Below the pieces are notes generated by a model. The model was not told where the DNA came from, did no database searches, and was given only the letters and a program-made list of their open reading frames with translations. From positions 34,162,001-34,226,000 of the forward strand of contig OX597828.1 of assembly GCA_951406725.2 (NCBI GenBank): a stretch of 64,000 bases of DNA, written 5' to 3'. Shown here piece after piece: positions 43,281-63,121 of the stretch. A program made the translations under genes and the position numbers. Source of the stretch: Octopus vulgaris (taxonomy: Eukaryota). Every line of letters starts with the position of its first letter. The first letter of the stretch is position 1.

Positions 43281-43866
43281 ATTCTTTTCTACTCGAGGCA
43301 AAAAAACCTGAAATTTTGTGGAGAAGGGGCCAGTCGACTAGATTGACTCTAACATACAACTGGTATTTAATTTATTGACCCCCGAAAAGATGAAAGGCAA
43401 AGTCAACATCAGTGGAATTTGAATTCAGAACGTAAAGACTGATGAAATACCTATTTCTTTACTACTCACAAGGGGCTTAACACAGAGGGGACAAACATGG
43501 ACAGACACACGGATTAAGTCGATTATATCGACCCCAGTGCGTAACTGGTACTTATTTAATTGACCCCGAAAGGATGAAAGGCAAAGTCGACCTCGGTGAT
43601 ATTTGAACTCAGAACGTAACGGCACACGGAATACCTATTTCTTTACTACCTACAAGGGGCTACACACAGAGAGGACAAACATGGACAGACACACGGATTA
43701 AGTTGATTATATCGACCCCAGTGCGTAACTGGTACTTATTTAATTGACCCCGAAAGGATGAAAGGCAAAGTCGACCTCGGTGGAATTTGAACTCAGAACG
43801 TAGCGGCAGACGAAATACCGCTAAGCATTTCGCCCGGCATGCTAACGTTTCTGCCAGCTCGCCACC
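43281..43866 (-). mobile_element. Nested SINE-B array: two 184-bp units with a Tx1-like tail (43452-43635, 43636-43819) within a SINE-B copy
   Basis: On the minus strand both units start ggtatt and end agccccttgtRRgtagtaaagaaata. The remainder (43281-43451) carries the ordinary SINE-B tail. Confidence 0.85.
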
Positions 43867-45010
43867 AATAATTTTGAGGGAGAAGGGGGGGGGGGAGAGG
43901 TTGGAGATAGAAACCATCCAGTGAGTGACAAGAAAGTGCCATGTGATATTTAGTTATATAATCTTATGTTCTGTGTTCAAGTCCCATTGAGGGAGGCACA
44001 AGCTGTATGATGGAGAATTTTGCTTCCACACCTCATGGTTCTGGTATCAATCCTACTGCATGGCACCTTGGGGGGGGGGGGGTCAAGTGTGTTCTACTAT
44101 ACTGCCAACTGAATGGATTTGGTAAATGAAAACTGAAAGAAGCCTGTCTTATATATATTTGTGTGTGCGTGTGTGTGCGCATGCGCACATATGGGCATGT
44201 GTGTGTGTGTGTTTGCATGAATGCGTGTACGTGTGCATGTGTGCACATGTGTATGTGTGTGTGCATGGTGAGTGTGTGTGTTTGTGTCTCCTTCTTTTGA
44301 AATCATGTGATAATTGGAAACAAACGAGCGTCACCATCGTACAAGCAGTGTCGCTCATTTCCAATCTTCCATGGAAACATGTCTGGCCATGTAGAAGCAT
44401 TACTTTGCTTACAAATAAGTGAAGGTTGGGAACAGGGAGGGCATCCGGCTGTAGAAAATCAATAAGCCTCAACAAACTCTGTCCAACCCACCATGCAAGC
44501 ATGGAAAAGAAGACGTTAAAGTGATGGTGATGGTGACAATGATTTTGCATTTTCTTCATCCTGGAACCAATAAGATAAGTACGTATCAGTCAAGTGTTAC
44601 AATTAATGTAATTAACGATGTCATCTCTCTCAAATATGAGGCCTTGTGTTGACATTAGAAACGTTGTTGTTAGTTTTGGTAAATTGGTGCAGTTGTGGAC
44701 GTGTCTGAAAAAATACCATGTTTCCAAAGGTGAATTATCCAAACCTCTAAGAATTCCTCTCAACACATGGCTATGATGCTCCCCAACTACTTCTGCTCAT
44801 GATCAGAGATGCACATATCGTCAACCACTAAGGCACATGCTCAACTGGTTAAGGTCAAACAACTAACAAGCAAATCTGTGGTATTGAGCAGAAAATTTGC
44901 TGTAGCCCATCTTTTATACCAAGACAATGTACATGATAACACTTCCATTCGGTTAAAATGAGAAGCCACGAGAGCCACTGTCTGGTACTGCATCAGGGCA
45001 TTATATTATT

Positions 45011-45043
<33 letters not shown>

Positions 45044-45260
45044 GTCATTGTATTGGGCCAATATACAACCATTATGTGAACCACACAACTGCACAGACAC
45101 ACCTCTTTGTACTACAATCCATACGACAATGGATGAATGAAATTATGCAATTCATTCTGAGAGTGTAGTGGTGGAGAGGATGGTGGTTATGCTTGCAGTA
45201 ATGATGGTGGTGGTGGTGGTGGTGGTAGTGTTGGTGGTCATGACTAAAAATGCTTCTTAG

Positions 45261-45480
45261 CCCTTTAGCATTCAGATGAATCCATCAAATGCAATGCCTG
45301 TGTATTCATGTTGTTTTGAATCAATCATTTATTACTTTGCAGCTTCACAATTTCAGTGACGTGGTTATTTACGTTTAGAAATACATTGTGAGGTAGGCCC
45401 GAGAGGCTGGATCTGGCCAGATTCAAGATAAAACAGGTAAATATTTAGGTTGGAAGTAGCCGGTTTAAATGCTAAAAGGG
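45261..45480. mobile_element. piggyBac-type MITE, second subfamily
   Basis: TIRs CCCTTTAGCATT / AATGCTAAAAGGG with degenerate TTAA flanks; a related fragment lies at about 3660-3775. Confidence 0.65.
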
Positions 45481-46994
45481 TTGAAGTTTTCCCTTCGACA
45501 TTTCAATCCACAGGCACCATGCAAAGGTGTTAGGGGTAGGGTAAATAAAGACACGTTATTGGGGTTGTCTAGGGACAGAATGGCTAAACTTTGTCAGGTA
45601 TGCACTTATTAGACACAAAGTGAAGGAGGAGAAGTGAGAGGAGAGGAATCCATTGTTGCATCCTGTACATTATGCAACACTGCACTGCAGACGTACACTT
45701 GCAGCCAAGTTGCACAAATATGTGCAAAAGCAGTACTATATGAAATGAGGTTAAATATAAGATGTTGTTGCAGTTGACATTATTGTGATTATTTAGCCCC
45801 AGGTCAGTTCTGATTCAAAAGATCTTTGATCAAAGGTATTCTAGCCATGACCATCTATTTCCGAGAGTGCTATACATCCTGGGGCATATTGCCCGGTGTG
45901 TCTTTTTGTAAGATGATAAGGTGTCATTTGAATGAGATCTGGCTCCCTCATTAGCTCCAAATTTAAGATGTAATATTTAATTATTGAAGCAATAACTGAT
46001 TACTAATTGGTAATTAACAGTAATGTAAGATTAATATGTTTAACAAGGCACAACCCTGCACCCGCCAAAAAATCTCTTCAGGGTAGGGTTGATTAAATCA
46101 ATCCTAGTATTTGACTGGTACATTATTTTATTGACAGCTTCAGAAAAACCATCCCAGCCATGCCAGTATGGGGAAAATGAACATAAAACACTAATGACGA
46201 TGATGATGATTGCATCCTATCATTTCTTACAAATACCCAGGTAAAACAGATGGCGATGTAAGGTAGAGGGTACTCTTCAATGTTATTAGAGAGACAACAA
46301 CTCTATATGTGTGTGTGTGTGTGTTTGTTCCACCATCTCTTGACAACTGGTGTTGGTGTGCTTACATCCCTGTAACCTAGTAGTTCAGCAAAGAGAGACT
46401 GATAGAATATGTACCAGGCTTTAAAAAAACAAAAAAAAGCACTGGGGTCGATTCATTCACCTAAAAATTCTTCAAAGTGGTGCTCCAGCATGGCCGCAGT
46501 CTAATGACTGAAAGGATACAATTACATTCTCCAATGTCTTCTTTTTTTTTAAGCTGGTAGGGTGAGGAGAATTGGGGTTGGGAGACTTGGCTGCTATTTC
46601 TAGCAGAGTGTGTGACCACATGGAAGCTCTTCCATTGACTTGTCCATGTTTATTAAGTCAATGCAAATAATAATAATAATAATAATAACACACAAGCATA
46701 TATGCACACACTGTGTCCCAAGGCTCTAGCAGGTTCTCAAACATAAAACTGAACAAATGCCACCTAAAAATAAACAGATGCACACATGAATGCACACAAC
46801 ACACACTGTATACCACAGCTCTATTTGGTTCCTGGATATAAAACTTGTTTGAGTGCTACCTTACTTATGCAATATCTTAACCTGGGTTGCAAGAGTATGT
46901 GAATGCAGGTATTTCTGTGCACCATTTTGAGTGTAATAGCTGAACATGACACAATGGGATGTGGGGTGAATGGGCAGGTAAGTAAAAAGATACA

Positions 46995-47271
46995 CAGGCA
47001 TACAGGTAAGACAGACAGACAGACAGAGATAAATATGTAGGTAGAAAAGTACATAGATAGACAGGTAGGGAGACAAGTTGATAGACATATAGATAAGTAG
47101 ATAGATAGATAGGTAGGTAGGTAGGTAGGTAGGTAGGAAGATAGATAGATGGATAGATAGATAGATGGATAGATAGATAGATAGGTAGATAGATAGGTAG
47201 ATAGATAGACGGACAGACGGACGGACGGACGGACGGACGGACGGACGGACGGACGGACGGACGGACGGACG

Positions 47272-47302
<31 letters not shown>

Positions 47303-61702: not shown

Positions 61703-62016
61703 GAGAGCACTCAGAGAGTGCAAACCTCTGCCAAAGCAGCACCAATGTCCTCTCAATGATTGGCCAGAGATGATTTTCAAAACGAGAATATCTGAAATAA
61801 ACTCGACTGTTCTCACAAATGAGAATACTAAAAATGAGCCCAACTGCTCTCAAAAATTAAGTAAAAGAACAGGAAAAATAGTCCAGAATCAGTTCATGCC
61901 AGTCACAAGGCGAAACATCCCTGAATCCATCCAGCAGTTCTTGAGATATCTTATCCACAGACAGACAAACAAACAAACACGACTGAAAACAATACCTCTG
62001 CCTTCGCTAAGGTGGA

Positions 62017-62019
<3 letters not shown>
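61703..62019 (-). mobile_element. Non-autonomous Helentron (DINE-1/HINE-like)
   Basis: Palindromic subterminal repeat acctctgcc..ggtggaggt, a (GTTT/GTCT) microsatellite, a second acctctgcc, and a gcactc..gagtgc hairpin; inserted in (TTA)n without a TSD. Confidence 0.72.
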
Positions 62020-62058
<39 letters not shown>

Positions 62059-62529
62059 GAAACAGTGACTGCAAAAATTGCATAGTAACACAAACATCGC
62101 ATTATCAATAAATTATCTATTTTGGTAAAATTGTTCTTGTTTTGTTATGTTTTTGGATGGGTGGGTGTTTTTTCCCCCTTTTTTTTCTTTTATTGAAATC
62201 TAAAAAAAAAAAAGCAAGAAACAAAACAAAACCAGGGTGGAGATGTAATTCCAAAGTTTCTGACAAACTTTTATTTCTTATAAATTCCAGAGGGAATTTT
62301 AGACAATTAGATAATTGCCATGGTTTGCTGATTATGTCTTTTATTTATTCATTTCTGTTTTGTTTCTTTGACAATGGTGCTTCTCCCACTCAACCAGACA
62401 ATTGACACAGAGACAAACAGCCAGTCATCTATCAAATTCTCTAGTTCCTATCCATTCATCATCTATTTATAAACAGATAAATAAATACCCACATGCACAC
62501 ACACACAAACATATGCACGCTCACACAAT

Positions 62530-62720
62530 AATAATAATAATAATAATAATAAAGCAAGAGAAGAAAGTACTTGTGGACTAATAGATGTCACATGACCACA
62601 ATAGTACCAACTATAAGCACACATATGCAGAAAGCAGTGTGATGATAATAAATATATGTTTTGGTGAAAGTGCAGATAATTTTTGACTTCCCCGTGTTAC
62701 AGACTTGCAGATTAAAAGTA

Positions 62721-62754
<34 letters not shown>

Positions 62755-63121
62755 TCTTTTTATTGGCCACAAGGGCTGACAAACATGATTGGAAAACATA
62801 AAGGGACAAAACAGGACGAAAGGTTACAAAAGGTTTTGTCTGTTTTTCGAAAGAAAAAAGTCCGTGTAAACAAGCTTTACAACAACGTAAAAAATTCAAC
62901 AATTTACAAAACTCCCAATAGAGGAGACGCTTCGAAAAAAAGAAAGGGTCTCACGTGGAAATAATAATAAACCAGAGAAGAAAATATTTGTGGACTGATA
63001 GATGTGGACTAATAGATGTCACATGACCACAATAGTACCAACTATAAGCACACTACGCAGAAAGCAGTGTGATGATAATTAATATATGTTATGGTGAAAG
63101 TGTGGATAATTTTTGACTTCC
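62530..63121 (+). repeat. About 160-bp local direct duplication (62530-62691 and 62961-63121)
   Basis: The block gtggactaatagatgtcacatgaccacaatagtaccaactataagcacac is present twice. Confidence 0.92.
62751..62959 (-). mobile_element. Tx1-like 3' end of a related family in (ATT)n
   Basis: Ends cagcccttgtggccAATAAAaagaatt followed by (ATT)n; (AAT)n is also present at the other junction. Confidence 0.6.

Follow-up and report, generated by a model that had tools for sequence, protein, structure and literature searches.

What decides where a retrotransposon lands, when elements ending in one and the same 3' tail are found against quite different repeats? This question is raised by a stretch of 64,000 nucleotides of the Octopus vulgaris genome (assembly GCA_951406725.2, contig OX597828.1, positions 34,162,001 to 34,226,000 of the forward strand), hereafter the window, in which related tails of long interspersed elements (LINEs) and of a short interspersed element (SINE) occur five times. 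A first-pass annotation, made from the sequence alone, described these five tails and proposed that sister lineages of Tx1-group LINEs may divide up the most abundant repeats of the genome among themselves as safe havens, with SINEs as passengers. All five tails are confirmed at the places described: A-type tails adjoin (TATC)n at 47438 on the minus strand and at 54371 on the plus strand, a B-type tail adjoins (ATT)n at about 62752 (minus strand), and SINE-type tails adjoin GGTATT at 43452 and 43636 (minus strand).

The reading favoured here, to which we assign a probability of about 0.68, is that the tail marks the 3' terminus common to sister LINEs of L1/Tx1 type that differ in their targets, (TATC)n for family A, (ATT)n for family B and fixed sites of other transposons for the remaining families, and that a loosely specific nick likely acts together with pairing between the RNA end and the target in setting the site. 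Two of the three targets first proposed are confirmed and the third is reinterpreted as mainly the SINE itself. Moreover, the system is wider than first claimed, since Helitron-like elements, an R2-like LINE and a repeat resembling a long terminal repeat (LTR) also serve as hosts.

Tail variant and downstream sequence

In the 2.8-Gb genome the core of the A/B tail is matched exactly 13,242 times and its reversed control once, and for the core of the SINE-type tail the corresponding counts are 82,880 and 23; the tails are thus no product of chance. When the genome is searched by tail variant, the variant predicts the downstream sequence. The A tail followed by TATCTATC gives 8,027 matches, against 9 matches at 7 places for the B tail followed by TATCTATC, every one of the latter with A-type last letters. 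Sister LINE lineages sharing one tail do use different repeats, as had been proposed, and both of the refuting checks set out in the first-pass annotation left this proposal standing. By hand count among the matches listed, 77 of 90 A-type tails are immediately followed by TATC, with no case of (ATT)n, and 100 B-type tails are followed by ATT (70), ATC (6) or other sequence (24, including several rows that are SINE or family C tails) and never by (TATC)n. Two additional families were considered as candidates and rejected: one specific for TTC, for which the only example is a B-type tail lying where ATT meets TTC (L146), and one specific for ATC, for which the three cases have one flank in common.

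Microsatellites as insertion targets

The long copy of family A in the window (47438..49285, minus strand) is 5'-truncated and consists of the last 489 codons of the second open reading frame (ORF2; 47816-49285, stop-free), the 3' untranslated region and the tail, with 99.2% identity to bases 4218-6072 of a full-length copy at locus L135. Microsatellites of (GATA/TATC)n type adjoin its 3' side (47080..47437) and its 5' side (49286..49447), and the first 28 letters of the former recur exactly at the 5' junction, forming a flanking duplication made of irregular repeat units. An older A subfamily is represented by a short 3'-end copy (54243..54371, plus strand; 74% identity to the L135 copy) flanked at both ends by TATC repeats, and the ATT-targeting family B by another (62752..62959, minus strand; 79% identity, across 192 columns, to the B copy at L139) flanked at both ends by ATT repeats. 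Each of these two short copies has an element-free local paralog that keeps the repeat: at 54795..54930 (plus strand) about three TATC units are retained in a pairwise alignment, and at 62501..62700 (minus strand) an (ATT)n run lies at 62527-62552.

It might be argued that such repeats are made by the elements themselves, through template slippage, and did not exist before the insertion. Among copies of at least 380 bases that are at least 88% like a reference, the repeat is indeed more often present on the 3' side than on the 5' side (32 versus 28 of 36 copies for A; 11 versus 5 of 11 for B, one ATC run counted), so that some of the 3' repeat may be element-made. However, in the 28 A copies with TATC at the 5' junction the truncation points range from base 1 to base 5563, long TATC runs thus adjoining truncation points along the whole element, and several of the other 8 A copies end in alignment ends instead of junctions. 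In addition, the empty paralogs keep the repeat, and irregular repeat units stand in duplicate at both flanks, not only in the 28 letters of the window but also at L031, L234 and L221; in other A copies the target duplications measure 9-17 letters. Because the repeat is found at 5' junctions as well as in empty paralogous sites, the microsatellites are insertion targets and not element tails. The slippage explanation is largely refuted, and hardly any likelihood is left to it. The combination of 5' truncation with target-site duplication seen in these LINEs is the signature of target-primed reverse transcription (TPRT).

Sister families inside other transposons

Tail and protein searches revealed further families with the same tail, namely C1, C2, D, E, F and G. 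Of 37 C1 copies, 10 are embedded in an R2-like LINE, in the part that encodes its C terminus, and 7 C1 copies in this host have distinct 5' ends with host sequence upstream; the remaining C1 copies occupy scattered sites, mostly starting with GGAT, which is partly a selection effect. A fragment of the same R2-like LINE, 83% identical to the host sequence in L331, is present in the window without C1 (52476..52770, plus strand). For D, 38 of the 100 tails listed (hand count) mark the same site in a Helitron-like element, and about 10 more of these tails lie at a second site of this host. Of 8 E copies, 5 share a single insertion site in a different Helitron-like element, and 2 more are stacked on another E. 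Helitrons are recognized by a 5' TC and by a 3' hairpin and CTAG end and have no transposase; ends of this kind were seen by eye in the hosts at L322, L321 and L334-L338. C2 lies in an LTR-like repeat at 6 of 14 loci, and no ORF2 was seen within 1.5 kb of its tail. The repeat in question is short (L260, L265, L267, L270, L271, L285) and is followed in L271 by a motif resembling a primer-binding site.

The tail is also carried by elements of about 1.8 kb that have ORF1 only and that stack head to tail upstream of D at the host site of D (L334, L337, L338, L340, L349-L352, L362-L369). They recall HAL1, or "half-L1", the known ORF1-only passengers with a LINE tail, from which they differ in that they stack at the target site of the autonomous element.

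An alternative explanation of these fixed sites is hitchhiking, that is, a single insertion later copied along with its Helitron-like or LINE host. Helitron-like elements are known to copy internal cargo, D copies are mostly long and some loci are local duplicates, all of which would suit it; yet D copies are more alike (98.8%) than their hosts (94.7%; 68 pairs) and hence younger, different elements, including a 5'-truncated D, are stacked at one site with a duplication between them (L347/L348), and the 7 C1 copies differ in their 5' ends within the host. Hitchhiking is accordingly considered very improbable.

By the rule that a target preference is present when one sequence type lies beside more than 20% of the copies (Kojima, 2015), such a preference is shown, among the matches listed, by A (77/90), B (70/100) and D (38/100) and, in non-random samples, by C1 (10/37) and E (5/8).

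Some further observations concern these families. A decayed ORF1-like fragment is present in the Helitron-like host of D (L335:6617-7000), and D inserts inside it. At L325, L418 and L420, copies of D/F type lie at several close positions of one repeat with CTGA...GAA motifs. Family G (L329:1480 and 6575; L406) occurs twice at one site of a repeat without assignment, about 25-30 bases behind a TATA-like motif and with an 18-letter duplication in L329.

The tailed SINE

The third target of the first-pass annotation, a sequence called "SINE-B" and attributed to a third lineage, is not borne out in that form. The elements at 43452 and 43636 are SINE units themselves, not insertions into another SINE, and what was taken for a third target is for the most part this tailed SINE. 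Three units make up the array 43281-43866, namely units of one SINE family, all on the minus strand: a full-length unit (43637..43866; SINE positions 1-229) with head, body and LINE-type tail, a tailed unit (43453..43636; SINE positions 49-229) showing the 184-base period, and a unit with the shared body only (43281..43452; SINE positions 49-166), which ends in a second kind of tail. In the head, motifs resembling A and B boxes are visible by eye only, ARAGORN finding no tRNA gene (0) and Rfam no match (0) at E up to 5. The tail aligns with that of the LINEs and is in this sense LINE-derived. The SINE, which is very abundant, and the ORF1-only elements both bear the shared LINE tail.

The 134 tailed SINE loci examined comprise 72 monomers and 62 multimers. 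Internal junctions fall at the SINE's own position 49 in 71 of 87 cases and at position 15 in 11 of 87; whole arrays are often bounded by one duplication and most arrays are seamless. Self-insertions with a visible duplication are few (L373; about 10 of 31 interruptions). No LINE was found at SINE position 49 or 15 in the 1.93 Mb examined or in 20 further tails, nor at position 49 in 31 interruptions after the position-49 duplication, no equivalent of this last search having been made for position 15. Most arrays would be inherited or seamlessly resolved multimers, and the GGTATT junction would be one self-reinforcing site.

Dispersed SINE copies carry target duplications in 52 of 95 cases, against 1 of 95 mismatched pairs used as control. 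These duplications start with GGTA at 24 of 95 ends, with TATA at 16 and with TATC at none.

The same head and body are also found with a second tail, faintly similar to the LINE tail, in the window (43281-43331 and 60905-60952) and at L050, L221, L223 and L316, with duplications of similar length that start with AAT or ATT. A third type of tail is present at L194 and L189.

Structure, age and relationships of the LINEs

From a structural perspective, full-length family A measures about 6.07 kb and encodes an ORF1 of 680 amino acids and an ORF2 of 1145 amino acids, the latter with an apurinic/apyrimidinic-type endonuclease (APE), a reverse transcriptase (RT) and a zf-RVT domain. The corresponding Pfam models (PF03372, PF00078, PF13966) score over the cut-off in the ORF2 of A, D, E, F and G and, in family B, are spread over two partial ORFs. 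In a comparison library limited to structures of L1 and R2 type, and to that extent a narrow one, the closest solved relative of the A ORF2 is human L1 ORF2p (E 3.5e-53, residues 4-873), followed by R2 (3.7e-20). No Pfam match was obtained for the ORF1 of A. The ORF1-only partner element gave zf-CCHC at 19.3 bits, below the cut-off of 20.8; a zinc knuckle in ORF1 is a feature of the Tx1 clade. Poly(A) is absent from these LINEs, which end about 6 letters past AATAAA.

By sequence, these LINEs are placed in the L1 group, with APE, RT and a C-terminal cysteine motif, a separate ORF1 and an RT nearer to L1 than to R2. Their target preference and architecture fit an assignment to Tx1. The nearest database relatives of ORF2 are unnamed proteins of 1,150 amino acids at 40-41% identity, and no named Tx1 protein was among the relatives returned by the database protein searches with ORF2.

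The ORF2 proteins of the sister families are 57-95% alike. When 33 genomic copies were analysed with 10 database proteins in a quick maximum-likelihood tree, A and B emerged as sisters (SH-aLRT 100) and C1, G, E, D and F formed a second clade (SH-aLRT 100), a single group taking in all 33 genomic rows together with one database protein. In this tree the TATC lineage is sister to the ATT lineage and not nested inside it. Family A is judged from its proteins to be very young, 85 of 87 scored copies (the best 87 of 40,648 candidates) being 100% identical to the protein of the window. Copies of B frequently stand head to tail, and numerous older B lineages are present.

Contigs from four runs cover the element and are uninformative on RNA ends or level. 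Sequence of family A at 99% identity or more was also met in two runs labelled as other organisms (X16, X19); this means either that relatives carry the element too or that the labels disagree. The A copies at L134, L136 and L138 have an ORF2 99% like that of L135 and an ORF1 region that is different upstream of base 1542, so that two types of ORF1 are joined to one ORF2. At L143-L145, a 63-base tandem array built from a portion of a different SINE is located upstream of a B-type copy present in triplicate. In the window, a short element with inverted halves (51826-51930) lies between (TA)n runs (51777-51984).

RNA end and endonuclease in the choice of the site

The large number of SINE copies permits the two possible determinants of the site, namely the enzyme and the end of the RNA, to be considered side by side. 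Duplications of the SINE begin sharply 6 letters past an AATAAA-like hexamer (50 copies), with a mean of 1.5 matches in 6 letters before this point and of 10.8 in 12 after it. Two tail variants occur, T and C; by hand count among the matches listed, in arrays T-variant tails stand before GGTATT (88 of 100) and C-variant tails before the position-15 site (93 of 100). With self sites filtered out, T-variant tails are followed by GGTA in 5,713 cases and by AGAA in 457, and C-variant tails by GGTA in 143 and by AGAA in 2,028, giving an odds ratio of 177 (95% interval 146-215). In other words, the letters that each variant prefers outside arrays are the letters that come after it in arrays. GGTA is present in the 5' copy of the duplication in 10 of 15 cases, and is therefore mostly target sequence.

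As regards the enzyme, a hairpin loop located between T192 and S202 of L1 tunes the specificity of the L1 endonuclease and alters nicking when grafted (PMC1950540). Placed by alignment in the elements described here, the loop is identical in A and B, and likewise identical in D, F and G. Pairing of the RNA end likely contributes to site choice, because the T or C variant of the SINE predicts the site and because A and B have the same loop.

The steps of such a mechanism may be proposed as follows. The tail, with a small hairpin, would be the feature recognised by the reverse transcriptase, and a loosely specific endonuclease nick would offer candidate sites. Transcripts would extend beyond the tail by a few letters of the adjoining target, and the last few letters of the RNA would pair with the nicked DNA strand, as in the I factor, R1Bm and R2Ol; for these elements and for RTE, RNA-target pairing at TPRT initiation has been described (PMC6007223). 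Each family or SINE variant would thereby tend to return to the sequence found directly downstream of its source copy.

The same partition of targets could be produced by the endonuclease alone, if nicking were specific to each family and if the SINE variants were carried by different LINE families at different times. APE identity is below RT identity both between A and B (69% versus 81%) and between D and E (74% versus 90%), which speaks for such control, but APE is usually less conserved than RT in any case. The loop is identical in families with different sites, and D and F use different sites despite an APE 90% identical. Control by the enzyme is the standard view for Tx1 (PMC4494074; PMC3812793), and nicking by the purified Tx1L endonuclease is confined almost entirely to the site of that element (PMC1950540); the exact preference of each SINE variant for the letters following it in arrays would nevertheless be a coincidence under a purely enzymatic control, which for these reasons we regard as rather unlikely.

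Several points weigh against the favoured reading. The 69% identical endonucleases of A and B have 35 fixed differences outside the hairpin loop, enough for specificity to lie in the enzyme only, and in L1 the loop alone does not transfer specificity according to Repanas et al. (PMC1950540). The split between T and C would also arise from two SINE subfamilies moved by two LINE enzymes, and AGAA is checkable at the 5' side in just 2 duplications, 1 of them matching. The hairpin of the tail, just before the hexamer, is weak (4 pairs, consensus -2.35 kcal/mol, a two-sided change at 1 of the 4 pairs). None of the 95 SINE copies starts with TATC, so that nothing points to A, the family with the highest activity, as the carrier of the SINE. 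Furthermore, 6 of 11 B copies have no ATT at the 5' junction, where neighbouring copies, an inversion or alignment ends are found; C1 is just partly specific, 27 of 37 copies lying elsewhere; the samples of C1, D and E are non-random; and the tree comes from a quick search with no bootstrap.

A stronger version of the proposal would give the RNA the leading role: one weakly specific endonuclease would nick many sites, the 3' letters of read-through RNA would pick the nick, and the target, inherited from the flank of the source copy, could be changed by a few RNA letters. We put it forward tentatively, as a minority possibility.

Comparison with known systems

The closest precedent for the joint system of sister LINEs and SINE is found in crocodilians, where several Tx1 families per genome have different targets, including (TTCC)n/(TTTC)n, Mariner-N4, Harbinger and LTR elements, and where SINEU represents SINE passengers with the same preference and with tandem insertions around the duplication (Kojima, 2015; PMC4494074). 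The targets described here are others, namely TATC, ATT, Helitron-like elements and an R2-like LINE. Moreover, the crocodilian families belong to three separate Tx1 lineages and are old (85-87% to consensus; PMC4494074), in contrast to the one compact lineage of the octopus with its very young family A. The octopus SINE also differs in that its tail is matched exactly at more than 80,000 places and is joined to the body of the SINE itself. Teleost Kibi, specific for (TC)n, and Koshi, specific for (TTC)n, are likewise APE-type LINEs with microsatellite specificity and differ from the families described here in the repeat unit; the target lists given in the same papers name TAA for Dong alone and do not list GATA/TATC (PMC4494074; PMC3812793).

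D and E have a parallel in Xenopus Tx1L, a LINE whose fixed insertion site lies in the non-autonomous DNA transposon Tx1D, with the differences that the host is there of piggyBac type and here Helitron-like, and that the specificity of Tx1L has been shown to lie in the enzyme (PMC4494074; PMC1950540). As for the RNA end, in the I factor, R1Bm, R2Ol and RTE base pairing between the 3' letters of the RNA and the nicked strand assists priming; there the pairing aids or sharpens insertion at a site, while here it may separate sites among near-identical tails (PMC6007223).

The paper on O. vulgaris repeats reports 80 L1-Tx1 families, 13 of them recently active, and the word "target" is absent from its text (PMC13282606). 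TATC, Helitron-like or R2-like-LINE targets for such elements were not found in the open literature searched; Repbase, Dfam and subscription journals lay outside this scope, and a prior description there is possible.

Significance

The gain and switching of microsatellite specificity in APE-type LINEs are described as not well understood (PMC3812793). Young and intact sister families with near-identical tails and clearly different sites are material for tests of control by the enzyme versus control by the RNA, and tens of thousands of SINE insertions constitute a natural readout of site choice. The same question also bears on LINE-based tools for targeted insertion. For the octopus genome itself, thousands of GATA microsatellites are interrupted by a recently active element.

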